Notes: generated by a model not told the origin, from the letters alone. A DNA stretch of 49,598 bases from Minisyncoccota bacterium (GCA_035905815.1 JAMIGE010000033.1:1-49598), one strand, 5' to 3'; shown: positions 5,609-46,762, counted from the stretch's first letter. A program made the numbers and translations.

Positions 5609-5782
5609 GCAAGATTTCTAAATTAATAGTGATCTGTATTAGTTTCATACCAGCGCAGTTAAGCGCTAGTGGTTATACACTTTCGGACTGGGCCCAGGCC
5701 ATGCTTCGTAAATATAAGGTGATTTAATACAAGTGGAGTAGGTCTTTCAAATTGCAAATATATGTGTTATAATATAGCTCAT

Positions 5783-5858
5783 GCGCGAATAGCTCAGCTG
5801 GTAGAGCACTCGACTGATACTCGAGCGGTCCCAAGTTCGAATCTTGGTTCGCGCACCA
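5783..5858 (+). tRNA. tRNA-Ile (anticodon GAT), CCA encoded
   Basis: Manual cloverleaf: GCGCGAA / GCTC-AGCTGGTA-GAGC / CTCGA-CTGATAC-TCGAG / CCAAG-TTCGAAT-CTTGG / TTCGCGC-A-CCA. TGTTATAAT (-10 at 5768-5773) lies 9 nt upstream. Confidence 0.95.
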
Positions 5859-5867
5859 AAGTAAAAC

Positions 5868-6006
5868 AATCCCTCACGGGGTTGTTTTACTTTGGTGCGA
5901 GCCGGACCGCGACTGGCGGGAGGCGGGGTAGCGAGCCTGGCCAGCAGGACAGGACTTGTGACCACCAATTCGAAATCCCTCACGGGGTTGTTTTACTTTG
6001 GTGCGA
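5868..6006 (+). repeat. 33-bp direct repeat (5868-5900 and 5974-6006) flanking a 73-bp GC-rich segment
   Basis: aatccctcacggggttgttttactttggtgcga occurs twice, 106 bp apart. The first copy is the 3' arm of a 20-bp hairpin (5854-5897) that begins inside the tRNA-Ile CACCA end. Confidence 0.9.
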
Positions 6007-6091
6007 TTTATATTTGTAAAACTAAATTACAATCATAGAATATGTGAATATGCTCTAGTGACAAATTTTTTATTTTTGTTATTATATAGTT

Positions 6092-6256
6092 ATGATTATA
6101 AACAAGCTTAGTAGAAAAAGTTTCGCTTCTGAAAAGTATACCTTACCCATATCTTCGTATTTAAAAGAGGAGATTGATAGTTCAAGAAAATTGTTTGCAA
6201 ATAAAACTTCGAAAACATATACTAGTAAAAGTATTTTGAAGTCGCTTGGGTTGTAA
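6092..6256 (+). CDS. Putative antitoxin (54 aa) of the ParE-like toxin
   Basis: My own translation gives MIINKLSRKSFASEKYTLPISSYLKEEIDSSRKLFANKTSKTYTSKSILKSLGL. It is below the track size cutoff. It ends 12 nt before the toxin ATG, the usual antitoxin-first layout. No family motif recognised. Confidence 0.4.
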   Translation: MIINKLSRKSFASEKYTLPISSYLKEEIDSSRKLFANKTSKTYTSKSILKSLGL

Positions 6257-6268
6257 TTTCTATTATGT

Positions 6269-6553
6269 ATGTACAAAGTAGTATATAACGATATATCGAG
6301 AAAGGATTTATCGGATATTTTGTTTTTCTATAAAAATATAGATCAATTAATATTGCAAAGTTTTTTGGAAGAGGTTTGCAAAATTGAAAAAGTATTATCG
6401 AATACACCAGAAATTTACAGGATAAGGTATGAGTCAGTAAGGCGTGTCAATTTTATTAATTTTCCATTTTGCTTATTTTATCAAATTGATGGTAAGTTTG
6501 TTCAGATTCTTAAAATTGTTCACCAAAGCCGTGATGTTGTATTTTGGCCATAA
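6269..6553 (+). CDS. parE: ParE/RelE-family type II toxin
   Basis: The 94-aa protein ends FPFCLFYQIDGKFVQILKIVHQSRD. This matches the ParE pattern (aromatic-x-i-x-Y ... v-x-I-l-x-i-x-H-x-x-R-D). Confidence 0.7.
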   Translation: MYKVVYNDISRKDLSDILFFYKNIDQLILQSFLEEVCKIEKVLSNTPEIYRIRYESVRRVNFINFPFCLFYQIDGKFVQILKIVHQSRDVVFWP

Positions 6554-6660
6554 TAATTCGAAAATTAGTCTTTTCCCCAAAGCTGGATTTTGAAAAAATT
6601 TGAGAATATGTTATATTTAATTGACGCTAAGCTTTGACCATTTGGGAAGACTAGTAGAAA

Positions 6661-6738
6661 ACTGTTTTCTAAACAGAATATGCCACTTTAACTCAGTTGG
6701 CAAAAGATTAATAGACAACGGTTTTGTAAACAGAATAT
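6661..6738 (+). repeat. Degenerate tandem copies of the tRNA-Thr 5' half and anticodon arm
   Basis: agaatatgccacttta[a/g]ctcagttgg is found at 6675-6700 and 6732-6757 (period 57). ac[t/g]gtttt[c/g]taaac is found at 6661-6674, 6718-6731 and 6765-6778. The upstream copy cannot form a D-stem. Confidence 0.85.
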
Positions 6739-6814
6739 GCCACTTTAGCTCAGTTGGTAGAGCAACGGTTTTGTAAACCGTAGGTCGTCAGTTCAAGCCT
6801 GACAAGTGGCTCCA
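6739..6814 (+). tRNA. tRNA-Thr (anticodon TGT), CCA encoded
   Basis: Manual cloverleaf: GCCACTT / GCTC-AGTTGGTA-GAGC / ACGGT-TTTGTAA-ACCGT / GTCAG-TTCAAGC-CTGAC / AAGTGGC-T-CCA. Confidence 0.95.
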
Positions 6815-9958: not shown

Positions 9959-10001
9959 GAGGGTTTGTTAAATTTACTTTTAGCAAACCCTCTTTTATTT
10001 T
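9959..10001 (+). terminator. Intrinsic terminator
   Basis: GAGGGTTTG (9959-9967) pairs with CAAACCCTC (9984-9992), followed by TTTTATTTT. A second hairpin lies at 9916-9936. Confidence 0.7.
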
Positions 10002-10035
10002 GTCAGAAAATGTAGTCATGATATAATATTAATAT

Positions 10036-11346
10036 ATGAAGAAGACTATTTTAATTACTGGAGGCGCAGGATATGTAGGCGCTATGCTATGTGATCAGTT
10101 TGCCAAGCGTGATGATATAGAAACTATAATTGCAATAGACAAAGAGCCCGAAACCGAACTTACTCTTAATAATCAAAACAAACATAAAATAATATATATA
10201 CAATCTAATTTATCTGATGAAGTCGTGGCAAGTGTGAGGGTGGGAGATGTCATAGACACCCTGGCGCATGATGGTAAATTACATAATCATTTAACTCATA
10301 ATGATAAAATGAGGCAAGAGCTTTCTCATTCTGATCCTAGTAAAGCCGTAGAGGTAGCCGATACCTGGGAAAGTGTTGCGATTAAATACAAGCCTACAAT
10401 TGTAATACATACCGCTTGGCAAATTCGCGAAATATATGGTGATAGACCGCTGTCATATAAATGGAATATTGATGGCTCGGATAGAGTATTCGATTATGCA
10501 TTCAATTTTAAGAATAAGTTTTCTGATAATTTAAATAATGGAGTAGAGAAGATGATTTACTTTAGCACAGTAGCATCATACGGGGCATTTGCTGATAACA
10601 AAATGGATTACTTTTTCAAAGAGTCCGATAAATTTAGAGAGACAAAATATTTATATGCAGAAGAGAAGCGCTGGACAGAGGAGCATTTAGAGAAAAAGTA
10701 TGCACACTATCTCACAACTATATCAAGTGCTGATGCTGTAGGTAAAAGCTCGCATAATCATAATGCAGATACTGTATCTGCACAGTCTAATTCAAATAGT
10801 AAAGTGCAAGTATTCATACTTCGCCCTGCAGCTATCACAGGGCCAAGAGGCAGATATGATCGTATACGTTTTGGCTTACAAAGTGCTTTGGCAGGGAATT
10901 TAGATAAAAGCTTTGTAAATAGAATAGTGACAGCACTTACTAGCTTTGTACCTGTAACACCAAAATGGCTTCGCCAATTTATACATGAGGATGATGTGAC
11001 TGATATCGTAGCGCTACTAGGACTAGATGACAGTGTGAAGGGCGACTACGAAGTATTTAATATTTGCCCTCCAGGAGAGACAGTACGCGGTGCTGATATG
11101 GCAAAGGCAGTAGGTAAAAGTATGGTAATGATACATCCATATATGGCGCGGGCTGCATTCTTCGTACTTTGGCATTTGTCCAGGGGTAAAATACCAACAG
11201 GAGAAGGTGCTTGGAAAGGCTACAGCTACCCAATTGCTGTGACTGGCGAAAAGCTTACCACTCAGTATGGATATGTGTACAAGTATAAATCCAAAGACGC
11301 ATTCAAAGACAATGAAGGCAGATACAAAGTTATTTTAAATAATTAG
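10036..11346 (+). CDS. NAD-dependent epimerase/dehydratase (extended SDR) with insertions
   Basis: The N-terminus ITGGAGYVG is a GxxGxxG motif. YAEEK is the Y-x-x-x-K motif. TGaTATAAT (-10 at 10022-10027) lies 8 nt before the ATG. Confidence 0.75.
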   Translation: MKKTILITGGAGYVGAMLCDQFAKRDDIETIIAIDKEPETELTLNNQNKHKIIYIQSNLSDEVVASVRVGDVIDTLAHDGKLHNHLTHNDKMRQELSHSDPSKAVEVADTWESVAIKYKPTIVIHTAWQIREIYGDRPLSYKWNIDGSDRVFDYAFNFKNKFSDNLNNGVEKMIYFSTVASYGAFADNKMDYFFKESDKFRETKYLYAEEKRWTEEHLEKKYAHYLTTISSADAVGKSSHNHNADTVSAQSNSNSKVQVFILRPAAITGPRGRYDRIRFGLQSALAGNLDKSFVNRIVTALTSFVPVTPKWLRQFIHEDDVTDIVALLGLDDSVKGDYEVFNICPPGETVRGADMAKAVGKSMVMIHPYMARAAFFVLWHLSRGKIPTGEGAWKGYSYPIAVTGEKLTTQYGYVYKYKSKDAFKDNEGRYKVILNN

Positions 11347-11483
11347 GCTGTTTGCGCTTGGCAATATTTGCAGTTTGTAGTTGAATATTGTAGGATGATG
11401 TAAACGCTCTTTAAAGTATAACTACTATATGATAGTGCTTAATCGAGCTGATACAACTTTAAATCAAAATTGGAAGGTATATT

Positions 11484-12392
11484 ATGTCTAGAAATAATTC
11501 CAAAAGTGCAATGCTTGGAAAAGTTATGCAGTGTCTAGTCGCAATGTCGTCTGGGGACTTACGAGTCTTACTTTTCATAGTCAAAGCTCTGGCGAGTAAA
11601 AAGGGTAAAGAACTCTATGAGCTTCGGCAAGGACTGTTAGAGATTGTAGACCCAGAAGATGATGGCACTCAAGAAGCCTCAGTGACTGCAGAACAAACTC
11701 CAAAAGCGGCTGATATCAATCGAACCACTAGCGCTAACCCAAATGCGTCTTGTCCAAATGGTAAGTCGAGACCTTCAACTCGCGGAATAGATGCTTCTAC
11801 TGCCATACCCAACGATTCAGATTCTCGAAAGGGTAAGAATGAAGGAAAAGTAGAAGCTGCCCCATTTAGAAAAGTTAAAGTTGACGATAGCGTTGTCGTT
11901 TTTTCGCGAAAAGAAGTCGCTGATAATGTTTCAGCGGCTCTTAATCTAAAAAGGGATAATAATTATCAACTGCCTCAATTTATTACGGGTAATGGTGTAG
12001 CTTTTTCATTTCATTACAACTACTCTGAGTATTGTGGTGGTGTAGAAGAGAACAAAAAGGCGGCGGTAGGGTCCTTAACCACTGAGACACCTTTCAATTA
12101 CCGTGATTGTGAAAGGCTTGTTTCTGGAGATAAGAAGGTCTCAATCGATGTCGGCCTCTCTGGGCTCTTGGGATATTTAATATCTCTCGGTGGCCAAGCT
12201 GAAGTTACTCGCTATTTTGCATATCATAAACAAGATGGCGGCCAAGGAGGCAGATTGTTCAGGGCTGTGCGATGTCATGATGGTACTCCAGACCCAAAGA
12301 TTACTTATGTTATTACTCATCTTCCTGTTGATTATGTAATAGAAAGCGGCAGTAAAATCTTATTTTTGCCTGATATGCATATAAGCAATTAA
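11484..12392 (+). CDS. Hypothetical protein, GC-richer
   Basis: A 302-aa ORF preceded by GGAAGG. No motif recognised. Confidence 0.55.
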   Translation: MSRNNSKSAMLGKVMQCLVAMSSGDLRVLLFIVKALASKKGKELYELRQGLLEIVDPEDDGTQEASVTAEQTPKAADINRTTSANPNASCPNGKSRPSTRGIDASTAIPNDSDSRKGKNEGKVEAAPFRKVKVDDSVVVFSRKEVADNVSAALNLKRDNNYQLPQFITGNGVAFSFHYNYSEYCGGVEENKKAAVGSLTTETPFNYRDCERLVSGDKKVSIDVGLSGLLGYLISLGGQAEVTRYFAYHKQDGGQGGRLFRAVRCHDGTPDPKITYVITHLPVDYVIESGSKILFLPDMHISN

Positions 12393-12530: not shown

Positions 12531-12559
12531 TTGACTTTATATTTTAAATAGTATATAAT
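12531..12559 (+). promoter_or_regulatory. rRNA promoter TTGACT-17-TATAAT
   Basis: TTGACT is at 12531-12536 and TATAAT at 12554-12559, about 130 nt upstream of the 16S gene. Confidence 0.65.
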
Positions 12560-12686
12560 AGTCTTCACGTTCATTGAAAGCAGAATATGATGCATTAATG
12601 CAAATCTACTGCTCGATTATTACTTAAAAGATAATCGAGCATATTAAAGACAAAATAAGTAAGAAAATTTATTTTGTCTTCCTTTT

Positions 12687-14213
<1,527 letters not shown>

Positions 14214-14492
14214 TTGGACCGCCCATTATATTTATATAATAGAGGCAAGGCGATACATACTTCGGTATGGATATATGTTTATGAGTATCATTTAAACTCA
14301 TCGCGCTACAGCGAAAGTTAGCAAAAGACCTGAAAGATGGCTAGAAAGGAAGACAAAATAAATCAGCTTACTTATTCTAAATCAGAATATGTAAAATTGT
14401 TTGTTAAGATTTTCATTATATGCAACACAACCCGCTTAGGCGGGATTTTAATTTATTTTTGCAAAAGTCAGTCAATGTGTATCTAGTATATA

Positions 14493-15493: not shown

Positions 15494-15690
15494 TTCTATC
15501 CTTCAAAAAATGTGTGAAAATGAACAAATGTTCAAATTGCATTATAATGCATAATTTAAATATTGTCAAGTGCCATCGGCAAGCCTCTATATATTACATA
15601 CTAAACTTATATTCAAAATTAAAGGGGCTCGTATATAATTTCGCTAATTGTCAAATTTATATTTGTATATATGAATGATATAATTAAGTA

Positions 15691-16788
15691 ATGACAACAA
15701 TCAAAGTGGTAAAGGATTATAATTTAGTAGATTGTAGTACATTTCGTACTGATACTATAGCTCGTAATTATGTAGAAGTGCAAACCGAAGAGGATGTAAT
15801 GGAGGTGATAGAGTATGCCAAGCAGAATGATCTGCGCATTCATGTACTGAGTGGCGGGTCTAATACAATATTTGGTGGTAATCTGGAGGGTTATCTAATT
15901 GTTAAAAATAATATAATGGGTATACAAATTACTGATGGTGAGAGTACAGATTCCGAATCTGTAGAGGTACGTGTAGGGGCGGGGGAGAATTGGGACGGAT
16001 TCGTAAGCTGGTGCTGCGAGGGCTGGCTTGGCGGACTAGAGAATCTATCATATATACCCGGGTCAGTAGGTGCTGCACCTGTACAGAATATAGGTGCATA
16101 CGGTGTAGAGTTATCCAGCGCAATTACAAGTGTAGAGTGTATAGATACTAAAAGTGGTGACAAACTTATAATTGCTAGAGGTGATTGTAAATTCGAATAT
16201 AGAAGTAGTATATTTAAGACGAACAAGTCGCTTATAATTACATATGCAAATTTTAAACTGCATAATTTAAAACGTAATTTAAAAATGAATCACGTGCTAG
16301 ATAATAATAGTAGTTACAAATTCAAATTATCATATGGCGAACTAGCGAAGCTTAATACTGATGCAATTGATATAATGAAAGTAAGAGAAGCTGTAATTAG
16401 TATTAGGTCTGCCAAGTTGCCAGATTGGCATAAAGTTAGAAATGCTGGAAGCTTTTTCAATAATCCAATAATTGCAATAGAAGATTATAAAATGCTAAGT
16501 GATAAATTGGCGTCACAGTATAAAATATCAGAACTGCCATGCTATTCATATAATGGCACTAGTGTAAAAGTGCCTGCCGGATTCCTAATTGACAAGCTAG
16601 TGAATAAAAAGCAAAGCCCAGATGGTAGCGTGTATCTGTGGCCTAGTCAGAATTTAGTAATATGTGCGAGTCCCTCAGCAGAGCTGCATGACATAGTGAA
16701 TTATTACAATTATATAATTAGTGAGATAGAGCGTATCACTGGTATAGTGCTGATACCAGAGGTCAATATGATCGGCATCAAGCAATAG
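15691..16788 (+). CDS. murB: UDP-N-acetylenolpyruvoylglucosamine reductase
   Basis: Contains the FAD-binding LSGGSNTIFGG motif, RSSIFK and NAGSFFNNP. TGaTATAAT (-10 at 15679-15684) lies 6 nt before the ATG. Confidence 0.85.
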   Translation: MTTIKVVKDYNLVDCSTFRTDTIARNYVEVQTEEDVMEVIEYAKQNDLRIHVLSGGSNTIFGGNLEGYLIVKNNIMGIQITDGESTDSESVEVRVGAGENWDGFVSWCCEGWLGGLENLSYIPGSVGAAPVQNIGAYGVELSSAITSVECIDTKSGDKLIIARGDCKFEYRSSIFKTNKSLIITYANFKLHNLKRNLKMNHVLDNNSSYKFKLSYGELAKLNTDAIDIMKVREAVISIRSAKLPDWHKVRNAGSFFNNPIIAIEDYKMLSDKLASQYKISELPCYSYNGTSVKVPAGFLIDKLVNKKQSPDGSVYLWPSQNLVICASPSAELHDIVNYYNYIISEIERITGIVLIPEVNMIGIKQ

Positions 16789-16800
16789 TATATATAAGCA

Positions 16801-19047
16801 CTACTTGTTGGGCCAAGGAGTGACCATTAGCAGGTCATCAGATTCGCGCTTGACTATATCCCATAATTCTTCTGTTACGAAAGGCATAAATGGATGCACT
16901 ACTATTAAATTCTCACGCAGTAGTGTAAATAGTAGCTTCATGCGTGATGGTGAAGGGTTCTCTGCTGCCTTACCAAATAGATTCAAGTGCTTTTTACTGT
17001 CCTCAATTATTGTGTCACATAGTGTGTGCCAGAAATAGTCATACACTTTCTCACTAGCTAGATGCAGCTTATAATTTTCGATATCATTTGTAATCTCTGC
17101 ACATTTATCTTGCCAAGCCGTGTATATAGCTTGATCCTCATCAGTGTATTTGATGCTTTCATCATATGGATTCTGCTCTTTGGCATCTGTGATGAATCTG
17201 GTAGCATTCCATATCTTGTTGGCGAACTTTTTATACGCGCCCACCTTCTTGGGGTCTAGGTTCATGTCTACACCCGGAGCATTATTAACAATTAATCCCA
17301 TACGCAAGGCATCAGTACCGTATTCTTCTGATATTTCAAGCGGTGATATTACATTGCCTTTGCTCTTGCTCATCTTCTTTCCTTTTGCATCACGCACTAG
17401 GCCATGTAGATATACATCCTTGAATGGCACATCACCCGTCAGGTAAAGTCCAAACATTATCATGCGCGCAACCCAGAAGAATAGTATATCTGCACCAGTT
17501 TCCATAAGTGCAGTGGGGTAATACTTTTTGAAATCGCTACTATCTGGATATCCTGTGGTCACTAGCGGCCATTGTCCAGATGAGAACCATGTGTCAAATG
17601 TGTCAGTCTCTGGCCTTAATAGCGAGTTACATGATTTACAATTTACTAGAGTGTTGTCTATATCTACATATCCACTATCGCACCCATCACAAATTTTAGC
17701 CGGTATAGGTATACCCCACACAATTTGACGACTAATATTCCAATCCTGAATATTACTCATCCAGTGGCGGAATATTTTGTCATGCTGCTCTGTTAATATA
17801 TTTACACGCTTATCATTCAGTGCTTGTATAGCTGCCTCAGCCAAAGGCTTCATAGTTACGAACCATTGAGCTTTGACTTGGGGTTCGATTTCTCTTTCAC
17901 ATTTGTAACATACTGATACCTCGTGACTGTAGTCATTGTCCACCTTAACCAGTAATCCCTTTTGATCAAGCTTTTCGATTATCATTGCTCTGGCATCCTT
18001 AATATTCATACCAGCAAATTCGCCAGCGATTGGTAGTAGCTTGCCACGCTCATCAATGACTTGTTCTATATCTAGATTATGCCTCTTGGCAATTTCAAAG
18101 TCTACACCAGAGTGCCAAGGTGTAATAGTCATAACTCCAGAGCCAAACTCTGGGTCACTCGCTGTGTCCTTGATAATAGTAGCCTCTATCGGACCATTAA
18201 TCCATTCTAAAGTTAGTTTATCTCCATGCTTGTACTCTGCGTATCTGCTATCATCTGGATGCATTACTACATATTTGTCGCCAAATTTAGTCTCAGGTCT
18301 TACTGTCCCAATTGTAAAGGGCCCATATTTGAAATAGTAAAATGGATCCTTACGAGTTTGATGATCTGTCTCTAGATTTGATAAGCTGGTCTGATGCTTG
18401 GGACACCAGTTCACAATCCTTTTCCCTCTATATAACAGGCCATCGGTATCCAGCTTTTTAAATGTATTATACACAGTAGACACTACTTTATCATCCAGTG
18501 TGAACATGGACCTAGACCAGTCACAACTAGCACCTAATTGCCTTAGCTGCCCCTCCATAAATGACTTATTAGATAAAGTAAAGTCTAATATCTCTTTGTA
18601 TAATTCCTCACGAGAAAGGTCGAATCTAGACCTACCTTGCTTTTCTAATACCTTTTCATATACTACCTGTGTTTCGAATCCAGCATGGTCAGATCCTGGT
18701 AGCCATAGTGCTCGCTTGCCTGCCATCCTGTGATATCTGATCAATATATCCTGAATCGTGACGAATAGTCCGTGACCAGCATGCAGTGATCCATTCGCGT
18801 TTGGTGGCGGCATAACTATTGTGTATGTTTTGTCTTGACCTATCATTTCAGAGTGAACTGCATCTGAAATCGCTTTAGTATTGTATTCGTCCCCCAGCTT
18901 ATACTTTTGAATTAATTCATTTGGCAAATTATCTGGGTTAAAATATCCGCTGTTTTGCCATTTATCGTAAATTTTGCTCTCAACTTCATTGTGATTATAT
19001 GGCTTGGTAAGCTTTTCTAATTTGGACTTTTGATCATTGTTATTCAT
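16801..19047 (-). CDS. valS: Valyl-tRNA synthetase (short form, 748 aa)
   Basis: Contains PPPNANGSLHAGHG (the HIGH region) and KMSKSKGN. There is no long C-terminal coiled coil. Confidence 0.85.
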   Translation of the reverse strand: MNNNDQKSKLEKLTKPYNHNEVESKIYDKWQNSGYFNPDNLPNELIQKYKLGDEYNTKAISDAVHSEMIGQDKTYTIVMPPPNANGSLHAGHGLFVTIQDILIRYHRMAGKRALWLPGSDHAGFETQVVYEKVLEKQGRSRFDLSREELYKEILDFTLSNKSFMEGQLRQLGASCDWSRSMFTLDDKVVSTVYNTFKKLDTDGLLYRGKRIVNWCPKHQTSLSNLETDHQTRKDPFYYFKYGPFTIGTVRPETKFGDKYVVMHPDDSRYAEYKHGDKLTLEWINGPIEATIIKDTASDPEFGSGVMTITPWHSGVDFEIAKRHNLDIEQVIDERGKLLPIAGEFAGMNIKDARAMIIEKLDQKGLLVKVDNDYSHEVSVCYKCEREIEPQVKAQWFVTMKPLAEAAIQALNDKRVNILTEQHDKIFRHWMSNIQDWNISRQIVWGIPIPAKICDGCDSGYVDIDNTLVNCKSCNSLLRPETDTFDTWFSSGQWPLVTTGYPDSSDFKKYYPTALMETGADILFFWVARMIMFGLYLTGDVPFKDVYLHGLVRDAKGKKMSKSKGNVISPLEISEEYGTDALRMGLIVNNAPGVDMNLDPKKVGAYKKFANKIWNATRFITDAKEQNPYDESIKYTDEDQAIYTAWQDKCAEITNDIENYKLHLASEKVYDYFWHTLCDTIIEDSKKHLNLFGKAAENPSPSRMKLLFTLLRENLIVVHPFMPFVTEELWDIVKRESDDLLMVTPWPNK

Positions 19048-19252
19048 ATATAAATAATATCATATTTGCACCCATAATCCAAAGGTAACTTGAAATACAA
19101 TTTATAGATGTGCTATACATTTCAGAAGATTTAGGCATTGATCGCCATAAACAGGCGGTCTTAGTTTACTATTGCTATTTACCTACTTATATGTTAATCT
19201 TAGCCCAGTTGTACATTCGTACACATCAATGCAAATAAGGGAGATACAAACG

Positions 19253-30087: not shown

Positions 30088-30114
30088 TTGTATATTGTAT
30101 CAGCTAATATTAAA

Positions 30115-33222: not shown

Positions 33223-33326
33223 ATGGAAAAGTAAAGCTATAAATGCTATAAGATTAAAATATTTCATACTTGCATACGATGTGTCACTTTAGGAAATATG
33301 ATTAAAATGCTATACTGATTAGATTA

Positions 33327-35081
33327 ATGTTTGAAATATTAAAGACAGAAGAAGATGTGAGTAAGCTTAAGAGGCAAATTATGCGAGAGCCATTTTATCG
33401 TGAGGCTATACTTCGTCTGCGTAAAAAGCTAAATAACAAAGTGGACATGGGGGCAATAGCTGGTATGCCAACTAATCCAGAAATGCTAATGCTGTACGAG
33501 GAACTAATCTCAGAAGGCAAGGAAGAGGACATCAAGCACGTGCGGCAAATATTGAAAAGGTTAAAAGTAAGATCCAATAGTGGCGTAGCAGTTATTAGCC
33601 TACTTACCAAGCCATATACATGCCCTGGTAGATGCATATATTGCCCAACAGAGAAGAATATGCCAAAAAGCTACTTATCCAAAGAGCCTGCAGCGGCAAG
33701 GGCGTTGGCTAATAGGTTCGACCCATACAAGCAGATTACAAGTAGATTAAAGGCGCTTGTAATGAATGGCCATCCTATAGACAAGGTAGAGATGATATTT
33801 ATTGGTGGCACATTTAACTTTTACAAGAAAGATTATCAGGAATGGTTTACCAAGGAGTCATTCAGAGCATGTAATAATTGGGGTCTTGATAAATCAAATG
33901 AAGAATACATACATGCAGATCATGGATATAATCTAGAAGATTTACAGAAAATTAACGAAGAGAGATTGGCGAGGATAATTGGACTAAGTATAGAGACCCG
34001 TCCAGATTATATAACAGCTACTGAGCTGAAGTGGCTCAGGTATTTAGGAGTGACCAAGGTGGAGTTGGGTGTACAGCATTTGAACGATGAAGTACTAGAA
34101 TTTAACAAAAGAGAAATGACCAATGAGGCCATGGCAAAGGGTAGCGAGCTATTACGCGATTACGGTTTTAAAGTTGTGTATCACATGATGCCAAATTTGC
34201 CAGGTAGTAATCCAGAGATGGATGTTAAAATGTTTAAGGACCTTTATAATGGTCTAGATCATCATCCAGACATGATGAAAATATATCCATGTATGACAGT
34301 ACGTGGTGCGCTGCTATACAAGCTGTATACTCAGAAGCTCATAGATTATGAACCATATGATGATGAATTACTGACAAGGGTATTAGCAGATGCAGAGCAG
34401 GAAGTGAAGTGCTACACTAGGCTAATACGCGTAATACGTGATATACCAGCTGACTATATAATAGCAGGTAGCAAGAAAAGTAATTTAAGAGAAATGGTGG
34501 ATAAGTATTTACAAAATAAGGGCATCAAGCAGGTAGACATTAGAGCCCGAGAGATCCGTGATTTAGAAATTGACCCAAATGATTTTACTTTAACAGAAAC
34601 TATATATAATACTCGCCATGGTAAGGAAATATTTTTACAATTTGAAAACAAGGAGAAGAATTTGCTCGCTGGATTTCTAAGGCTAAGACTTCCTGATTTT
34701 GAAAAGATCAAAGCAGATGCAGACTATGATGCATCTCATATTGCGCCAGAAACTGCCCATAATTGGGGCCTGGACAAATGGATGGCAGAGTCAGAAGCAT
34801 TTATAAACACTAATTCAGAAATTGTTAAAATAGATGAGCTACTTAGCGGGGCCGCACTAGTACGCGAACTGCATGTATACGGCACCATGAAAAGGGTAGG
34901 GGAAGAGGGTAATCAAAGTCAACATACAGGTATGGGCAAGGCGCTACTAGCTAGAGCAGAGCAAATTGCAAAGCAGTCCGGATATCAGAGACTGGCAATA
35001 ATTTCTGGTGTTGGTGTTAGGAATTATTATCGAGGCCGCGGCTACGAATACAGGGATACTTATATGTCCAAAGAGCTATAA
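33327..35081 (+). CDS. elp3: Elp3-like radical-SAM / GNAT acetyltransferase (tRNA U34 modification family)
   Basis: The radical-SAM motif is CPGRCIYCP. The C-terminal GNAT block is QHTGMGKALLARAEQIAKQSGYQRLAIISGVGVRNYYRGRGY. At 584 aa, the length and domain order match Elp3. Confidence 0.8.
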   Translation: MFEILKTEEDVSKLKRQIMREPFYREAILRLRKKLNNKVDMGAIAGMPTNPEMLMLYEELISEGKEEDIKHVRQILKRLKVRSNSGVAVISLLTKPYTCPGRCIYCPTEKNMPKSYLSKEPAAARALANRFDPYKQITSRLKALVMNGHPIDKVEMIFIGGTFNFYKKDYQEWFTKESFRACNNWGLDKSNEEYIHADHGYNLEDLQKINEERLARIIGLSIETRPDYITATELKWLRYLGVTKVELGVQHLNDEVLEFNKREMTNEAMAKGSELLRDYGFKVVYHMMPNLPGSNPEMDVKMFKDLYNGLDHHPDMMKIYPCMTVRGALLYKLYTQKLIDYEPYDDELLTRVLADAEQEVKCYTRLIRVIRDIPADYIIAGSKKSNLREMVDKYLQNKGIKQVDIRAREIRDLEIDPNDFTLTETIYNTRHGKEIFLQFENKEKNLLAGFLRLRLPDFEKIKADADYDASHIAPETAHNWGLDKWMAESEAFINTNSEIVKIDELLSGAALVRELHVYGTMKRVGEEGNQSQHTGMGKALLARAEQIAKQSGYQRLAIISGVGVRNYYRGRGYEYRDTYMSKEL

Positions 35082-35101
35082 TATGCTACAATAATTATTA
35101 T

Positions 35102-36364
35102 ATGAAGTTTATAGACAAGTGGAAGCTTATACTTAACTCCTATTCCTCAGTTATGAAGGAGATTAGTATGTATGGGTCATCACAAGTGATAATACAAGGT
35201 AGCTCGTTTCTTGCTATTACAATGGTGTCTAGATATTTGGGTCCTACCAATTTAGGATTGTATAGCTTCGCCCAGAGCTATATGAGTACGTCGCTGGTTA
35301 TAATTGGGGGCTTTGATTTTTTCTACTCTTGGCAATTAGCAAAAAGCACTGATAGGCATAATGTCGTAAAGAATTATTTATTGCAGAAGCTGTCCGTAAT
35401 GACTATTATACTGCTGCCTGCAATCATATTTGCATACATATCATTCCCTAAAGATGTATTTTATTTGTCTCTTGCAACTTTTATTCCGATAATATTTTAT
35501 CCTTTTACTGCTTTTTGGACTTATGCGCAGATTGATAAGAGGGCCAAGCTGGTGTCGGTAGCAGGCTCTACCGCCGCAATCACATCTCTAATTATCAAGG
35601 CAGTGCTAGTGTATATACATGCGCCGCTAATCGCATTTGCATTCATGGCGGGCTTTGATTTAATTATAGGTAGCCTACTCGTCGCTATCGTATTTCTAAG
35701 CACTAAATACTGGAGATCGCTGCTTACAACGCCATACGATTACAAATTCAAGGAGGTATTTAGTTATATATATAGTTTAAAGTACAGTGTAATTTTCTCT
35801 ATCTCTTTTCAAATGCTGCTTCGAATTGATCAGTTGCTACTACCAAAACTCACAAGTGCGTATGCGCTAGGTATATATAGCGCTGCAGTTAAAATAAGTG
35901 AGGTGCCTAATGTACTAGTAGGTGTTATGTATGTGACACTTTTGTCACGTGTCGCGCCAATCATTGCGTCAGATAAGCATGAAGACAAGAAAAGAGTCAA
36001 GCAGTTGTTCTGGCTATATTTCTTATTAGGACTCCTGGTTGCATTGTTCATAATTGTATTTGCGAAATATGCAGTAGCCATTATTTATGGTCAGCAGTAT
36101 TTGGAATCAATACCAGTACTACAAGTATATGCAATTTGCATTCCATTCATGTTCTTGTGCGTATACTATAATAGTATATTTGGTGCATTAGATAGGAAAA
36201 AATTAATGGCTGGTGTGTATTTGGTGGCTGCAATACTTAATGCATTTTTTGTAATTATTTTGACACCAAAGTTTGGATTAATTGGTACGGCTCTTGCTAA
36301 TGTATTCACTTACTCTGCTGCTGTGACAGCCTTTGCGATTGCACATAGATATCTATCCAAATAG
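35102..36364 (+). CDS. Polysaccharide/oligosaccharide flippase (Wzx/PST-family, multi-TM)
   Basis: A 420-aa protein with about 12 hydrophobic helices. The N-terminal SSQVIIQGSSFLAITMVSRYLGPTNLGLYSF is typical of PST-family transporters. Confidence 0.65.
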   Translation: MKFIDKWKLILNSYSSVMKEISMYGSSQVIIQGSSFLAITMVSRYLGPTNLGLYSFAQSYMSTSLVIIGGFDFFYSWQLAKSTDRHNVVKNYLLQKLSVMTIILLPAIIFAYISFPKDVFYLSLATFIPIIFYPFTAFWTYAQIDKRAKLVSVAGSTAAITSLIIKAVLVYIHAPLIAFAFMAGFDLIIGSLLVAIVFLSTKYWRSLLTTPYDYKFKEVFSYIYSLKYSVIFSISFQMLLRIDQLLLPKLTSAYALGIYSAAVKISEVPNVLVGVMYVTLLSRVAPIIASDKHEDKKRVKQLFWLYFLLGLLVALFIIVFAKYAVAIIYGQQYLESIPVLQVYAICIPFMFLCVYYNSIFGALDRKKLMAGVYLVAAILNAFFVIILTPKFGLIGTALANVFTYSAAVTAFAIAHRYLSK

Positions 36365-36784: not shown

Positions 36785-36835
36785 AATTGTGTATATGCTA
36801 AATGACTTTTAAATATTAAATGCTATAATACTTAT

Positions 36836-37585
36836 ATGTCTAATCCAATAATTATAGGTAATTTAAAAGCGAACCCAGATACTTTGAAGTCTTGTCACAA
36901 TCTTTTAAATTCCATTGATAATAATTTAAATAAATCTAAATACAAATATTATATTGCTGCGCCCGATTCATATATTTACAATTTGTCAGAATACACATAT
37001 AAAGCTGTGATCGGCGCTCAGGATGTAGGGGCGCTAGAGACTGGTGCGCATACCGGGGCAGAGACTCTTTCAATGCTATGCAGTGTGGGCGCAAAATTTG
37101 TAATTATTGGCCATAGCGAAGTCAGAGCCAAAGGTGAAACTCATGATACCATAAATCAAAAGGTCTCTACTTCTACGGCTGCTGGAGTTATGACAATACT
37201 GTGTATTGGCGAAAACTCTAGAGATGCCGATGGTGAGTATTTGAATAATATTGTTAGCGATTTGAAGTCATGCATTAATGCTGTGCATAGCGACAATCTG
37301 AAGCATCTAGTAATAGCCTATGAGCCAGTCTGGGCCATAGGTAAAGGTCGTGCTGCTAGCGTGGACGAAGTATTGGAAGTTAGTATTGCCATCCGAAGAG
37401 AGATAGCTCAGAAATATGGACTTGCAAGCGCTAAATCAGCCAAAGTGATTTATGGTGGATCAGTAGATGAAGACAATGCACACCATTATGTAGAAAGTGC
37501 TGGAATGGATGGATTGTTGGTGGGTAGGGCGGCCTTGGACGGAGAGAAGTTTGCAAAGATAATTAATAATTGCTACGAAGTTTAA
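36836..37585 (+). CDS. tpiA: Triosephosphate isomerase
   Basis: Contains IIGHSEVR, AYEPVWAIGKG and YGGSV. TGCTATAAT (-10 at 36824-36829) lies 6 nt before the ATG. Confidence 0.9.
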   Translation: MSNPIIIGNLKANPDTLKSCHNLLNSIDNNLNKSKYKYYIAAPDSYIYNLSEYTYKAVIGAQDVGALETGAHTGAETLSMLCSVGAKFVIIGHSEVRAKGETHDTINQKVSTSTAAGVMTILCIGENSRDADGEYLNNIVSDLKSCINAVHSDNLKHLVIAYEPVWAIGKGRAASVDEVLEVSIAIRREIAQKYGLASAKSAKVIYGGSVDEDNAHHYVESAGMDGLLVGRAALDGEKFAKIINNCYEV

Positions 37586-38678: not shown

Positions 38679-38733
38679 AGCTTATCCACATAATCTGTCA
38701 CACTTTTGCCTTAAACCTGTTATAATATGTAGC

Positions 38734-39276
38734 ATGGATGTTAAAGATGTAATAATTCGTGCTAAAAATGGTGACAAAGATGCGTTTTCTGCACTTTTCA
38801 ATGAGTATTACGACCCGTTATTTCGTTTTGTAATGTCCAGAACTTATAATAGGGACAAATCAGTAGACATATGTCAAGATGTGTTCTTACGTTGGTATGA
38901 GGCGCTACCTAGGTATGAGCTAGCAGGTAGCAGCCCGTTATCATACTTATTTACTATTGCCATGCGCCTAGTGATTAATGATTCTATAAAGAAGAAGGCC
39001 GACTATCTAAGCGAAGATGCTGATGAGTATATATCAGACGGGGATCAAGGTACTGAGTATTGGAATGATATTAATATTAGCCTCGTACAGATACAAGACC
39101 TGCTTCCACAACTAACAGATAATGAGAGGCTAATCATTGAGCTCAAATACATATCTGATTTAGATAATAAAGAAATATCTGCTATAGTAGATAAGGCACC
39201 TGACTCTATAAGGCAGCTAGAGCACAGAGCACTAGCAAAGCTAAGAAAGCTTTACACACAACAATATGAAAAGTAA
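38734..39276 (+). CDS. ECF-type sigma-70 family RNA polymerase sigma factor
   Basis: Region 2 is FNEYYDPLFRFVMSRTYNRDKSVDICQDVFLRWY. Region 4 is LTDNERLIIELKYISDLDNKEISAIV. TGTTATAAT lies 7 nt before the ATG. Confidence 0.8.
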   Translation: MDVKDVIIRAKNGDKDAFSALFNEYYDPLFRFVMSRTYNRDKSVDICQDVFLRWYEALPRYELAGSSPLSYLFTIAMRLVINDSIKKKADYLSEDADEYISDGDQGTEYWNDINISLVQIQDLLPQLTDNERLIIELKYISDLDNKEISAIVDKAPDSIRQLEHRALAKLRKLYTQQYEK

Positions 39277-40266: not shown

Positions 40267-40304
40267 GATTGACAATAGATTGTATTCTTGTATAATTATA
40301 GTCT

Positions 40305-41213
40305 ATGAAAATAAATACAGCTAACCAGCATTTGGTGGCTACTAGAGCCACTAATAATGCTAAGACAATTATGCTTATGGGTGCCATGGCGCTGATAATA
40401 GTATTCTTTGGATTTACTGCTAGTGTGTCGACTGGGAATAGTACTTATCTATGGGGCGCAATTATTGGATCTGCACTTTTGAATATTTTCTCTTACTTTT
40501 TCTCATCGTCTATTGCGCTCTCTCAAAGTGGTGCGGTATTAGCAGATCAAAATAAATATCCTGATTATTATGAGTCCGTCTCTGCTATGGCTCGTGACTA
40601 TGACCTTCCTATGCCAAAGCTTTATGTAATTAATGATCCTTCACCGAATGCATTTGCTACTGGCCGCAATGCCAAGAATGCATCTGTCGCTGTCACTACT
40701 GGACTACTTGCTATGCTAGGCAAAGCTGAGTTAGAAGGCGTATTAGCACATGAGCTTACACATATTAAGAACAAAGACATGCTGGTCATGACTACCGTAG
40801 TTGTTATGTCGGGCGTACTTACAATGTTTGCGCATATTGGACTTAATAGCGCAATATCCTCTAGAGGATCTGACCGCGATAATGGTAGTGCAGGACTTGC
40901 ACTAGCAATTGGACTAATTGCAAGTATAGTACTACCGCTAGCCGCTACAATAGTGCAGATGACGATCTCTAGAAAGCGTGAATTCATGGCTGATGCTGGC
41001 GCAGGACTACTTACTGGCCATCCAGAGGCGTTGGCTAGTGCCTTAGCCAAGATTGGAGGCTATACGCAGCCCCTACAGCGTGCTAGCGAGTCTACAGCTC
41101 ACCTATATATATCCTGCCCATTTGGAGGCAATGTAAAGGCACAAAGCTTCTTCCAAAAGCTATTCATGACCCATCCCCCAATCGAGGATAGAATCAAAGC
41201 ACTTGTTGGGTAG
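40305..41213 (+). CDS. htpX: Membrane zinc metalloprotease HtpX (M48)
   Basis: Contains HELTHIKNKD (HExxH) and several TM segments. The promoter is TTGACA (40269-74), 16-nt spacer, TATAAT (40291-96), 8 nt before the ATG. Confidence 0.88.
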   Translation: MKINTANQHLVATRATNNAKTIMLMGAMALIIVFFGFTASVSTGNSTYLWGAIIGSALLNIFSYFFSSSIALSQSGAVLADQNKYPDYYESVSAMARDYDLPMPKLYVINDPSPNAFATGRNAKNASVAVTTGLLAMLGKAELEGVLAHELTHIKNKDMLVMTTVVVMSGVLTMFAHIGLNSAISSRGSDRDNGSAGLALAIGLIASIVLPLAATIVQMTISRKREFMADAGAGLLTGHPEALASALAKIGGYTQPLQRASESTAHLYISCPFGGNVKAQSFFQKLFMTHPPIEDRIKALVG

Positions 41214-41355: not shown

Positions 41356-41475
41356 GCGCTAGTCCTTATTAGTACTAGAACTTTATTTTAGCAAAAATAT
41401 CAAATTAGATACATATTGACAAAATCCCATAAAGTAGTATAATTAGATTAATTGAACTTTTAGGAGAGAACTATT

Positions 41476-43098: not shown

Positions 43099-43127
43099 AA
43101 AAGCGGACGCTAGTCCGCTTTTTACTT
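43099..43127 (+). terminator. Intrinsic terminator
   Basis: AGCGGAC-GCTA-GTCCGCT is followed by TTTT. Confidence 0.8.
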
Positions 43128-43154
43128 TGTGTTAATTGTGCTAAAGTATATAGT

Positions 43155-43958
43155 ATGAAGCGCCAAAATAATATTTTAAAGGCAAAACCAAATACTGCCG
43201 ATTTTAATAACAAATCTAATGACAGTGTCAGCCCTAGTGATAGTATTAGTGGCATGGGAACTTTGTACGTAGTGGCTACGCCAATTGGTAATCTGGAGGA
43301 TATAACTTTGAGAGCTGTTAGAACTTTAAAGGAATCAGAATTAATACTATGCGAGAATGTGAGTGAAGCCAGTAGACTGCTAAAGCATTATGAAGTATCT
43401 ACTCCCACTACGAATTACTTTGCTAATTCTAAAATTTCAAAACTAGATAAAATTATGGATATGCTGGCAGATGGTAAAGTTATTTCGCTAATTAGCGATG
43501 CTGGCACTCCTGCAGTATCAGATCCTGGCGCAATGCTAATACACGAAATCCGCACTCATTTGCCTGATGTGAAAATAATAACGATACCCGGAGCGTCTGC
43601 AGTCACAGCAGCATTTAGCATTTCAGGAGTATATGGGAATAATTTTCTATTCCTAGGATTTGCACCGCAAAAGAAGGGTAGAGAGACATTCTTTAATGAG
43701 CTTGCTGATTCTAAGTATAATGTAGTGTTTTACGAAAGTGTGCACAGAATTGAAAAGTGCCTCCAGAATATTAAGAGCTCATTAGAGTCTAAATATAGTA
43801 ATGATCAAGTATCAACGCGTAAAATAATAGTTGCTAGAGAGCTTACAAAAATATATGAGCAAGCTGTTACTGGTAATATATACGAAATAATCGATTACTT
43901 TACAAATAATAAAGACAAAGTAAGAGGCGAGTTTGTAGTAATAGTGGAAGGTATATAA
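43155..43958 (+). CDS. rsmI: 16S rRNA (cytidine1402-2'-O)-methyltransferase
   Basis: TLYVVATPIGNLEDITLRAVRTLKESELILCE and ISDAGTPAVSDPG fit the tetrapyrrole-methylase fold, RsmI family. Confidence 0.85.
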   Translation: MKRQNNILKAKPNTADFNNKSNDSVSPSDSISGMGTLYVVATPIGNLEDITLRAVRTLKESELILCENVSEASRLLKHYEVSTPTTNYFANSKISKLDKIMDMLADGKVISLISDAGTPAVSDPGAMLIHEIRTHLPDVKIITIPGASAVTAAFSISGVYGNNFLFLGFAPQKKGRETFFNELADSKYNVVFYESVHRIEKCLQNIKSSLESKYSNDQVSTRKIIVARELTKIYEQAVTGNIYEIIDYFTNNKDKVRGEFVVIVEGI

Positions 43959-43984
43959 TATGTGCTATTATATTAAAAATAAAC

Positions 43985-45337
43985 ATGAGTAAATACAAAA
44001 TTATTGGCGGAAGGAAGCTGTCTGGTGAAATTAAAATACAAGGTGCCAAAAATGAGGCCTTACAAATAATCTGCGCATCGCTATTAACAGAGGAGAAAGT
44101 TACAATTCATAATGTGCCTGATATACTAGATGTGCGTAATCTGTACAAGATATTAGAACTTTCTGGTGCAATTGTAAATTTTGAAAATGGTACTCTAACA
44201 ATTGAGTGTAAGAATATCAAAGATAATTTTTTCATTAGTGAGGAGTGGATGAGTGCGGCAGGTAAGCTGAGAGGCTCACTTATGCTGCTAGGACCCGCGC
44301 TTGCCAGGTTTAAAAAAGTAAAGGTGCCAATCTTTGGTGGTGATAAAATTGGTAAAAGACCAATAGATACCCATTTGGATGGATTTGTTAAGCTAGGTTA
44401 CTCTTATTCTGACGGTGCGCTCTATTACGATGAAAGTAATTTCAAGAATGTGAATACTTATCCAATAATTTTAGAAGAACCATCAGTCACAGGTACGGCC
44501 AATATTTTATTAGCAGCAGCACATTCAGAAAAGGCCGTAGTAATATACAACGCTGCATGTGAGCCATATATAGAGCAACTATGCAAATTGCTTAGAAGCA
44601 TGGGCGCCAAGATAGCTGGCGACTCTACTAATAGATTAAATGTGATTGGTACTAGCAAACTTTCTGGTGCAGTACATACAGTCCTACCTGACTTTGTAGA
44701 GGTGGCGTCATTTGTATCATTGGCAGCAATCACCAATTCACAAATTATTATAAAGGGTATAAAGTATTACAATACAGATGATATAAACGTAGATAATATA
44801 GGACAGACCCTGATACCTTTTAAAAAGCTAGGTATAAACTTTAATATAATTGAAAATGAAATAGCAAAAAATGTGTTTGAGTCTAGTATACAGATGCTAG
44901 ATAATACGAAGTATATAGTTAGCACCTTTTCATCTGGAGAAGTATTGCATATATATGATGCGCCTTGGCCAAATATTAGCCCTGATATATTATCAGTATT
45001 ACTAACTGTGGCGCTGCAAGCTAAAGGTACTGTACTTATACATCAAAAGATGTTTGAAAGTAGACTATACTTTGTAGACAAGCTTATCGGCATGGGTGCA
45101 CAAATTATACTTTGCGATCCGCATCGCGCGATTGTAGTTGGCCTAAATAGAAAGAAAAAATTAACAGGTACAAAGCTAGAAAGTCCAGATATTAGAGCAG
45201 GTATGGCACTGCTTATAGCAGCTATCTCTGCAGAAGGTGAATCAATAATTAGTAACGCTGATCAAATTGAAAGAGGATACGAGAACATATTAGCCAGACT
45301 GCAATCCTTAGGTGTACAGATTGAGCAAGTTAGCTAG
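43985..45337 (+). CDS. murA: UDP-N-acetylglucosamine 1-carboxyvinyltransferase, Asp in place of the catalytic Cys
   Basis: Contains KIQGAKNEAL. The active-site loop is FGGDKIGKRPID, compared with E. coli GGCTIGARPVD. D120 is encoded by GAT at 44342-44344. Confidence 0.9.
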   Translation: MSKYKIIGGRKLSGEIKIQGAKNEALQIICASLLTEEKVTIHNVPDILDVRNLYKILELSGAIVNFENGTLTIECKNIKDNFFISEEWMSAAGKLRGSLMLLGPALARFKKVKVPIFGGDKIGKRPIDTHLDGFVKLGYSYSDGALYYDESNFKNVNTYPIILEEPSVTGTANILLAAAHSEKAVVIYNAACEPYIEQLCKLLRSMGAKIAGDSTNRLNVIGTSKLSGAVHTVLPDFVEVASFVSLAAITNSQIIIKGIKYYNTDDINVDNIGQTLIPFKKLGINFNIIENEIAKNVFESSIQMLDNTKYIVSTFSSGEVLHIYDAPWPNISPDILSVLLTVALQAKGTVLIHQKMFESRLYFVDKLIGMGAQIILCDPHRAIVVGLNRKKKLTGTKLESPDIRAGMALLIAAISAEGESIISNADQIERGYENILARLQSLGVQIEQVS

Positions 45338-45463
45338 CGCAAATTTACCGAGAGTGTTTTAAATGATACTCTGTAATGACTTACTAATATATTACTTCTG
45401 GTATTAAGGCTGTGATGCAAGACATCTGCTTGCAAAGACTTTATAGTAGTGTATTATAAAGTA

Positions 45464-46762
45464 ATGAAGAAGTCAGATATTAAATTTGCGGATATCCCAG
45501 ATGCGCCCGGTGTGTACTTCTTTCGTGATACCAATAATAGCGGAGATAAAGACGGGGCAATATTATACATCGGTAAAGCGACAAGTCTAAGAAATAGAAT
45601 TAAGAGCTATTTCGATCGTGATTTAGTAGAAAAGCGTGGGCTCAAAATTGTAAACATGGTATTAGCTGCTAATCATATTACATACGAGACTACTCAGAAT
45701 GTTTTGGAGGCGCTACTGTATGAGTCATATCTAATTAAGCAGCATTTGCCGCTATTCAATACCAAAGAGAAAGACAACAAGTCGTATACTTCAGTAGTAA
45801 TTACCAAAGAAGAGTACCCTAGAGTACTTATTATGCGTATCAGAGAGTTTGAGAAAGTATTCAACAAAAGCGATCTGGATGTGGTGTACGGACCGTTTAC
45901 GAGTGCTCAAGGCCTGCGCGATATCATGCGCATAGTGCGCAAAATATTCCCTTATAGGGACAAATGCGAGCCAGGGCAGGGCAAGTTATGCTTCAATGCG
46001 CAGATAGGGCTATGTCCAGGCTGTTGTAATGATGCAATTAGTTCCAGTGATTATAAGAATTATAGTATTAAGAATATTAAAAAGCTATTCGAAGGAAGAC
46101 ATAAAGAAATTAGAAAATCATTAGAGCATGACATGCATGAATATGCAAAAAATGAAAAGTTTGAACTGGCGGCCAAACTTCGAAATACTCTATGGGCTAT
46201 GGATCACGTGAATGATGTTGCGCTTATTAAGAATGAAAACATAGAAAGCTTTAGGGATAAAAAATTTAGAATTGAAAGTTATGATGTGGCACACATGTCT
46301 GGTAAAAGTAGGGTAGGAGTTATGACAGTAATAGAGGACGGCAAGATTAATAAGGCTGAATACAAAAAATTCAAACTAGAAGAAAGCACAAATGATGATT
46401 ATGCAGGTATAAGAGAAATGATATCCAGAAGGTTAGCGCATAATGATTGGCGACTACCGGACATAATAGTATTTGATGGTGGTAAAGCCCAAAAGCAAGT
46501 CGGAGATAGTGCTATTATAAACTTTGTCAAAGAGCATGAATCACATACAAATAATATTGATTACCCAAATTTTAAGAATATACTAAGTATACAAACAGTA
46601 AGCGTAGTCAAAGATGATAAGCATAAAGCAAAAGATATATTAGGAGACGAAAAGATTATTAAGGAATTCAAAGACCAGATACTGCTTGCAAATAGTGAAG
46701 CACATAGATTTGCAATAAAGTATCACAAAGAACTACGCGAGAAGAAGATGTTAAACAAGTAA
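45464..46762 (+). CDS. uvrC: Excinuclease ABC subunit C, short form lacking the C-terminal (HhH)2
   Basis: The GIY-YIG domain is GVYFF...ILYIGKATSLRNRIKSYF. There is a Cys cluster, a UVR-like helix KFELAAKLRN, and the endonuclease domain RIESYDVAHMSG. An ATG at 45464 is preferred over the track's GTG at 45449 because TATTAT (45452-57) lies 6 nt upstream of it. Confidence 0.8.
   Translation: MKKSDIKFADIPDAPGVYFFRDTNNSGDKDGAILYIGKATSLRNRIKSYFDRDLVEKRGLKIVNMVLAANHITYETTQNVLEALLYESYLIKQHLPLFNTKEKDNKSYTSVVITKEEYPRVLIMRIREFEKVFNKSDLDVVYGPFTSAQGLRDIMRIVRKIFPYRDKCEPGQGKLCFNAQIGLCPGCCNDAISSSDYKNYSIKNIKKLFEGRHKEIRKSLEHDMHEYAKNEKFELAAKLRNTLWAMDHVNDVALIKNENIESFRDKKFRIESYDVAHMSGKSRVGVMTVIEDGKINKAEYKKFKLEESTNDDYAGIREMISRRLAHNDWRLPDIIVFDGGKAQKQVGDSAIINFVKEHESHTNNIDYPNFKNILSIQTVSVVKDDKHKAKDILGDEKIIKEFKDQILLANSEAHRFAIKYHKELREKKMLNK

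Follow-up and report, generated by a model that had tools for sequence, protein, structure and literature searches.

Promoter boxes abutting start codons suggest leaderless housekeeping genes in a Parcubacteria-type lineage without the 16S anti-Shine-Dalgarno core

Gene content and host lineage

The window, meaning the whole stretch of DNA analysed here, comprises 49.6 kb from a Minisyncoccota bacterium (GCA_035905815.1, JAMIGE010000033.1:1-49598). At about 39% GC, it carries approximately 43 protein genes, four tRNA genes and a 16S rRNA gene at 12687-14213, to which no 23S gene is linked. The element in question is a TATAAT-like -10 box standing a few nucleotides (nt) before the ATG of many of its housekeeping genes. 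An original prediction had listed ten such sites, nine in front of protein genes and one in front of a tRNA gene, and had read them as promoters of leaderless mRNAs. All ten were found where it had placed them, and the gene identities were borne out by Pfam.

For TpiA and ValS, the best homologues with a name came from Paceibacterota, Parcubacteria, Pacebacteria or Nomurabacteria genomes from metagenomes. Identity among the TpiA relatives dropped from 80 and 73 to approximately 52%. No close relative was present in reference genomes, neither in the TpiA scan nor among the matches listed in the TpiA-alignment scan. The homologue names, the drop in identity and the lack of a close reference-genome relative probably place the host, as judged from sequence, in a poorly sampled lineage of the Candidate Phyla Radiation (CPR)/Parcubacteria (Paceibacteria, Patescibacteria).

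Promoter boxes in front of start codons

The sites are listed with coordinates and strand; spacers are counted from the end of the box to the start codon or gene start.

9959-9992 (+): terminator-like hairpin of 14 bp, directly 5' of the epimerase promoter
10000-10038 (+): epimerase; TTGTCA (10000), 16 nt, TGATATAAT (10019-10027), 8 nt, ATG 10036
15676-15693 (+): murB; TGATATAAT (15676-15684), 6 nt, ATG 15691
19045-19062 (-): valS; TGATATTAT (19062-19054), 6 nt, ATG 19047
30085-30102 (-): fmt; TGATACAAT (30102-30094), 6 nt, ATG 30087
35084-35104 (+): flippase; TGCTACAAT (35084-35092), 9 nt, ATG 35102
36821-36838 (+): tpiA; TGCTATAAT (36821-36829), 6 nt, ATG 36836
38697-38736 (+): extracytoplasmic function (ECF) sigma factor; TGTCACAC, 14 nt, TGTTATAAT (38718-38726), 7 nt, ATG 38734
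40269-40307 (+): htpX; TTGACA (40269), 16 nt, TATAAT (40291-40296), 8 nt, ATG 40305
45452-45466 (+): uvrC; TATTAT (45452-45457), 6 nt, ATG 45464
5765-5773 (+): tRNA-Ile (5783-5858); TGTTATAAT, 9 nt 5' of the gene, in the geometry that had been claimed for it
25216-25224 (-): tRNA-Leu; TGTTATAAT, the same box as for tRNA-Ile, 11 nt before 25204
4624-4632 (-): added candidate, hypothetical 183-aa gene (4066-4617); TGCTAAAGT, 6 nt, ATG 4617
6077-6085 (+): added candidate, 54-aa open reading frame (ORF); GTGACA at 6058, TGTTATTAT, 6 nt, ATG 6092
33308-33329 (+): added candidate, radical SAM gene; TGCTATACT, 10 nt, ATG 33327
43099-43157 (+): added candidate, TP_methylase (RsmI-like); hairpin (43099-43122), TGCTAAAGT (43139-43147), 7 nt, ATG 43155
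12531-12559 (+): 16S rRNA promoter, the reference sigma-70-type promoter of this organism; TTGACT, 17 nt, TATAAT, leader of about 125 nt

A TG separated by one base from the 5' end of the -10 hexamer is characteristic of promoters. Such extended -10 elements were present in 11 of 14 protein-gene candidates, including the radical SAM gene, and in both tRNA promoters. The exceptions were uvrC, in which the TG directly adjoins the hexamer, and htpX, which instead has a full -35/-10 promoter with 12 of 12 positions matching the consensus. The boxes of htpX and of the epimerase gene are accompanied by a matching -35. Two candidates are located directly 3' of intrinsic terminators (epimerase, 9959-10036; rsmI-like gene, 43099-43155). 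At the epimerase gene, promoter and ATG follow the hairpin within 44 nt. As terminator, promoter and ATG are directly successive at both genes, no room is left for a leader. That tRNA genes share the box shows it to be a promoter element rather than a signal for translation.

The start codon was ATG in every window candidate, and for eight of the nine listed proteins no in-frame start codon lies between the preceding stop and the chosen ATG. The exception was uvrC, where an in-frame GTG at 45449, five codons upstream of ATG 45464, overlaps the -10 box and is unlikely to serve as start codon. Pfam domain matches opened at residues 2-5 in TpiA, the epimerase and the sigma factor, which together with the first in-frame ATGs makes other starts up- or downstream implausible. 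The TpiA alignment also backed the ATG start. Upstream sequences and duplex energies, which were all weak, confirmed that the candidate genes lack a Shine-Dalgarno (SD) motif, as had been proposed for the listed ones.

Enrichment over the AT-rich background

A plain box was defined as a match to TATAAT at at least five of six positions, with A2 and T6 required, ending 5-10 nt before the start. It preceded 15 of 43 genes. Shuffling the 60 nt upstream gave an expectation of 4.3 +/- 1.9 genes and shuffling of positions -25 to -1 only gave 6.0 +/- 2.2, with 15 genes reached in 1 of 5000 shuffles. The TG-extended box preceded eight genes, with 0.31 +/- 0.55 expected from the -25 to -1 shuffle and eight reached in none of 5000. 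Internal in-frame ATGs served as a control, of which 0/244 carried the TG form and 8/244 the plain form. This comparison with shuffled upstream regions, part of the computational check put forward with the original prediction, therefore revealed an excess over the AT-rich background.

Perfect TGnTATAAT boxes without an ATG at 6-10 nt also occurred, at 4114-4122 (+), 46818-46810 (-), 48386-48394 (+) and 20419-20427 (+). The first is antisense to the ORF 4066-4617 and is followed by GAGGAGG, the second is directed into the 3' end of uvrC, the third lies downstream of the last complete gene and the fourth is situated 58 nt 5' of grpE. These boxes may drive leadered, antisense or small-RNA transcripts.

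Conservation in relatives and across the clade

Upstream of tpiA, four related loci (L005, L006, L007 and L010, with 73, 80, 53 and 52% protein identity) carried TG(C/T)TATAAT, exactly 6 nt and ATG. The sequence of the 6-nt spacer and everything 5' of the box had diverged. A tpiA identical to that of the window is present in the Logan assemblies of runs SRR26192773-75 and SRR18360467. In L007, the ECF sigma gene (51% identity) was preceded by TGTCACAC-N14-TGTTATAAT-N7-ATG, an architecture identical to that of the window. The public call for this gene (11464-12069) uses a GTG start 48 nt upstream of the conserved ATG at 11512; it is probably mis-annotated, the leaderless architecture having been ignored. 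For valS, TGATATTAT and the 6-nt spacer were kept in L215 (81%). Variants were TGgTAGTAT with 9 nt in L216 and cATACT with 6 nt in L217.

A histogram of box-to-start distances, also proposed with the original prediction, was drawn up for 804 kb of Parcubacteria-type DNA, consisting of the window, tpiA and valS relatives and loci at 16S genes lacking the anti-SD. Each TGnTAnnnT box (at least 5/6) was followed to the next ATG opening at least 80 codons, independently of gene calls. For spacers of 0-10 nt, the counts were 3, 4, 0, 3, 1, 0, 50, 25, 9, 11 and 4; beyond 10 nt, about two cases were found per position. Transcription normally begins 6-7 nt past a -10 box, which is where the peak lies. 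At these two spacers the start codon was ATG in 75 cases, GTG in two and TTG in one. Once duplicates were removed, 42 loci contributed. The base at -1 was T or C in 39 of 50 cases (78%). Transcription usually prefers a pyrimidine followed by a purine at its start, Y(-1)R(+1).

The 6-nt peak was also present in four other Patescibacteria loci (L091-L094) and in three Saccharibacteria loci. The bacterial leaderless signature, a -10 box about 6-8 nt from the start at a frequency above chance, was found in the window and across the clade. The geometry is common across Parcubacteria and occurs in other sampled Patescibacteria; it is not special to the window. Phylum controls were drawn from at least 80 reference-genome loci of unrelated phyla, matched by TpiA alignment. 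Among the matches listed, spacer 6 accounted for 0/115 motifs in Firmicutes loci and 0/207 motifs in Bacteroidota loci, and neither phylum showed a peak.

The TG, the tRNA boxes, the -35 elements, the terminators and the spacer peak support the reading given in the original prediction. The boxes are most probably sigma-70-type promoters placed at the AUG, from which leaderless mRNAs would be transcribed.

The 16S rRNA 3' end

The window 16S ends in GGAUUAAUUCCAAA in place of GGAUCACCUCCUUA. In the Rfam alignment, GGAUUAAUUCCAAA stands against the consensus GGAUcACCUCCUUu, CCUCC having turned into AUUCC.

14200-14213 (+): 16S rRNA 3' tail, GGATTAATTCCAAA versus the consensus GGAUCACCUCCUUu; CCUCC core changed to AUUCC

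The window was searched for a 3'-terminal insertion or a second 16S that could provide the canonical anti-SD GATCACCTCCTT, and none was present near the rRNA. A metagenome scan for 16S ends was anchored on the lineage-specific helix 45 and not on the tail. Of the 120 related ends, 107 were without CCUCC, with 85 distinct tails; the 13 canonical tails carried other helix-45 arms. The Rfam alignment and the related metagenomic tails bear out the earlier statement that this 16S has no anti-SD. The loss of CCUCC is real and clade-wide. No murB, valS or other window genes were found beside the 120 metagenomic 16S loci.

At the anti-SD position, the 107 related 16S genes (among L095-L214) had short palindromes, for example UCCAAUUGGA, UUCAAUUUGAA, CUCAAAUUGAG and UCCAAUCGGA; the counterpart in the window (14200-14235) is UCCAAAUUGGA. 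The palindromes seem to change in a compensatory way. In single-sequence folds the tail hairpin was weak (approximately -2 to -6 kcal/mol), and many tails did not fold. The 16S flanks at 12649-12683 and 14348-14380 are complementary and resemble a processing stem, with the 3' arm about 134 nt past the 16S end. Neither tRNA genes nor a 23S gene were located downstream of the 16S.

Other features of the window

In a third upstream class, an A/U-rich AAATAAAT(AT) stretch directly adjoins the ATG, the genes concerned being internal or leadered. At -20 to -4, AATAA was enriched about sevenfold, and the stretch may be a non-SD initiation context.

27337, 27702, 30864, 32448, 43985: ATGs with a AAATAAAT(AT)-type stretch; also rpsG in L007, and L010

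The gene rplE (ribosomal protein L5, 42062-42613) stands alone among hypothetical genes, outside the usual large ribosomal-protein operon; the box 6 nt 5' of its ATG, TGCTATCTC, is no more than weak. The region 1-5400 has a GC content of 43-47%, above the remainder of the window. Among its genes is one for a secreted beta-lactamase-like protein behind a strong SD-like site, and it also contains ORFs whose TTG or GTG starts are uncertain. The region may be foreign in origin. Several features are located at 5857-6814, between tRNA-Ile and tRNA-Thr. A terminator-like hairpin of about 45 nt is present in two copies, at approximately 5857-5900 and 5973-6006, with a GC-rich stretch in between. A partial copy of the 5' half of tRNA-Thr is found at approximately 6672-6700, as after integration of an element. 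The 54-aa ORF at 6092 is followed by a 94-aa ORF (6269-6553), which by the look of its sequence resembles a RelE/ParE-type toxin; the pair may be toxin-antitoxin-like.

Observations weighing against leaderless initiation

Several observations count against leaderless transcription as described above. The spacers of 8-10 nt at the epimerase, htpX, flippase and radical SAM genes may produce leaders of 1-4 nt, which are not strictly leaderless; the radical SAM gene is a borderline case, for which the spacing implies a leader of 0-3 nt. The fmt and flippase genes lie only 20-27 nt behind an upstream gene, and leadered read-through transcripts probably coexist there. The fmt box sits within the 27-nt gap 3' of def, for which TTG 30690, ATG 30681 and ATG 30657 are start candidates, and the flippase promoter adjoins the stop codon of the gene upstream. 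In Actinobacteria, used as a positive control with the loose TANNNT motif, the histogram was flat and without a peak. This control is uninformative because long ORFs arise in many frames of high-GC DNA, and the clade test is sensitive only where the -10 box is strong.

The remaining objections concern SD-like sites. About 10 of 43 genes had AGGAG, AAGGA or GGAG 4-9 nt from the ATG, an approximately tenfold enrichment, and canonical GGAGG persists near some starts throughout the clade lacking the anti-SD. It was not found in the closest tpiA relatives nor in L091-L094.

1812, 11484, 15493 (-), 19753, 25045 (-), 26126 (-), 28502, 36449, 41476, 47748: gene starts with SD-like sites (AGGAG/AAGGA)

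Two of these genes are located behind perfect leadered promoters, at 15569-15541 (-) and 41416-41443. The window tail could pair through UUCC with GGAG or GGAA, giving about 4 bp including a wobble pair; AUUCC thus pairs weakly with the SD-like sites, and a canonical tail would pair better. An SD-like route that is not explained by the 16S tail may therefore still be operating. Eight of the ten SD-like genes had no Pfam match; the other two encode a beta-lactamase-like protein and a fatty-acid desaturase. Their mean GC content was 0.454 compared with 0.378 for the leaderless set (Mann-Whitney p ~0.001). Recent horizontal acquisition may be the simplest reading of these genes. Several have signal-peptide-like or hydrophobic N-termini, and the SD-like motif 5' of 36449 was kept in L006.

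Discussion

The strongest competing explanation accepts the promoters as real, but holds that transcripts from upstream promoters or read-through dominate and that the leaderless form is minor or carries a leader of a few nt. The positions of fmt, 27 nt after def, and of the flippase gene, 20 nt after the radical SAM gene, would suit this explanation, as no terminator was found between the genes of either pair. The 8-10 nt spacers at four genes, and the clear leaders of grpE and parB in the window (58 and 16 nt), point the same way. However, the epimerase and rsmI-like promoters directly follow terminators, valS and murB head divergently oriented units, and tpiA, htpX and uvrC have short upstream gaps without another strong promoter. 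The spacing of 6 nt is strictly kept at tpiA, which implies that selection acts on where transcription begins with respect to the AUG. Dominance of leadered transcripts is accordingly considered unlikely.

It is very unlikely that the TATAAT-like element serves the translation of leadered mRNAs as a non-SD signal, such as an A/U-rich, unstructured or S1-binding enhancer of the Bacteroidota type (group B). Some non-SD signal is needed in an AT-rich genome whose 16S has lost the anti-SD, A/U-rich AAATAAAT does lie right at the ATG in several genes that are internal or leadered, and plain -10-like matches near starts were mildly increased in the Bacteroidota controls (8% vs 4%). Yet the extreme enrichment (8 vs 0.31) is driven by the TG, a promoter feature, and the identical element occurs 5' of tRNA genes. 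The -35 elements at htpX and the epimerase gene, and the terminators immediately upstream of boxes, also count against it. The 6-7 nt peak, with few cases at 0-5 nt, fits the point at which transcription begins after a -10 box, and the Bacteroidota loci had no extended -10 peak.

Chance TA-rich hexamers in AT-rich intergenic DNA or mis-assigned start codons are hardly credible: at about 39% GC the window does hold 994 plain TATAAT-like hexamers (at least 5/6) on both strands, but the shuffles matched the observed counts in only 1/5000 (plain) and 0/5000 (TG) cases, the TG form was absent from all 244 internal ATGs, the geometry was kept across lineages and flat in the AT-rich control phyla, and the ATGs were first in-frame starts with domain matches from residues 2-5.

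Leaderless initiation from promoters placed at the AUG would operate as follows. About 12 of approximately 43 genes (about 40% of those first in an operon), mostly housekeeping genes, would be transcribed from a sigma-70-type promoter, chiefly an extended -10 of the form TGnTAnAAT, with the hexamer ending 6-10 nt 5' of the ATG. At spacers of 6-7 nt, RNA polymerase would start at the A of the AUG, and at spacers of 8-10 nt transcription would start 1-3 nt upstream of it. Recognition of the 5'-terminal AUG by ribosome and initiator tRNA would then need no SD pairing, a mode that would suit a 16S 3' tail without the CCUCC core. Internal operon genes, having neither element, come after overlapping or close stops or after A/U-rich AAATAAAT stretches, and leadered promoters and SD-like motifs are present in the higher-GC accessory set.

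A wider proposal is put forward tentatively and as a whole. In Parcubacteria without the anti-SD, leaderless initiation might be the default for housekeeping genes, with the promoter placed so that transcription starts on the AUG and with SD pairing largely abandoned. The 16S tail would have been replaced by a co-varying palindrome (for example UCCAAUUGGA, UUCAAUUUGAA or CUCAAAUUGAG), and GGAGG remnants at accessory genes would be footprints of horizontal acquisition or a second, SD-like recognition mode. The same box geometry extends to Saccharibacteria and to Patescibacteria loci whose 16S tails are canonical, so leaderless initiation may have become widespread before the anti-SD was lost and may have made that loss possible.

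Both the loss of the anti-SD in Parcubacteria and leaderless organisation as a kind are already known. New here are the lineage and the coincidence of leaderless geometry with anti-SD loss; a full-text literature search found no paper tying leaderless mRNAs to anti-SD loss or to CPR bacteria, its one pertinent result being Tsurumaki et al. 2022 on anti-SD loss. An mRNA beginning at the AUG is a concrete and testable answer to how translation starts after the anti-SD has been lost, as it has in about half of the Parcubacteria. Gene callers tuned to SD motifs will mis-place starts in metagenome-assembled CPR genomes, and the TGnTATAAT consensus with its fixed spacing offers a simple model of promoter and start for uncultured members of the lineage.

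Comparison with known systems

In GeneMarkS-2, leaderless transcription is recognised by a Pribnow box lying 6-8 nt from the start, and Actinobacteria (Mycobacterium, Streptomyces, Corynebacterium) and Deinococcus-Thermus make up group C (PMC6028130). The window resembles group C in the position of the box at first-in-operon genes, in the share of operons affected (about 25-50%, other genes using other signals) and in the mis-placement of starts by standard gene callers, here at the ECF sigma gene of L007. In contrast to group C with its loose TANNNT, the window genome is AT-rich and has a strong extended -10, TGnTATAAT. It probably belongs to a CPR/Parcubacteria lineage, one that has lost the 16S CCUCC core, which Actinobacteria and Deinococcus have kept.

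Archaeal leaderless genes (group D: Haloferax, Sulfolobus) likewise have a promoter abutting the start codon and use a 5'-terminal AUG, but their TATA box lies about 26 nt upstream and the transcription machinery is another. The non-SD Bacteroidota (group B) share with the window the scarcity of SD sites and the A-rich stretch that shortly precedes many starts. Bacteroidota are known to retain the anti-SD sequence and to use leadered mRNAs. Unlike the window, their control loci lacked the extended -10 peak at 6-7 nt.

The closest parallel in the rRNA is found in the Parcubacteria without an anti-SD. The motif was reported in only 48% of Parcubacteria, with SD helices probably not formed, and the report gave no account of translation start or leaderless mRNAs (Tsurumaki et al. 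2022, RNA 28:1041; PMC9297842). The window 16S shares the 3' end without CCUCCU, and its ValS and TpiA homologues carry the labels Parcubacteria, Pacebacteria or Nomurabacteria. The rplA region, which bears on an overlap of this group with the one lacking ribosomal protein uL1, lies outside the 49.6-kb window. To this known group, the present analysis adds the promoter-at-ATG geometry as a candidate answer to how translation may start.

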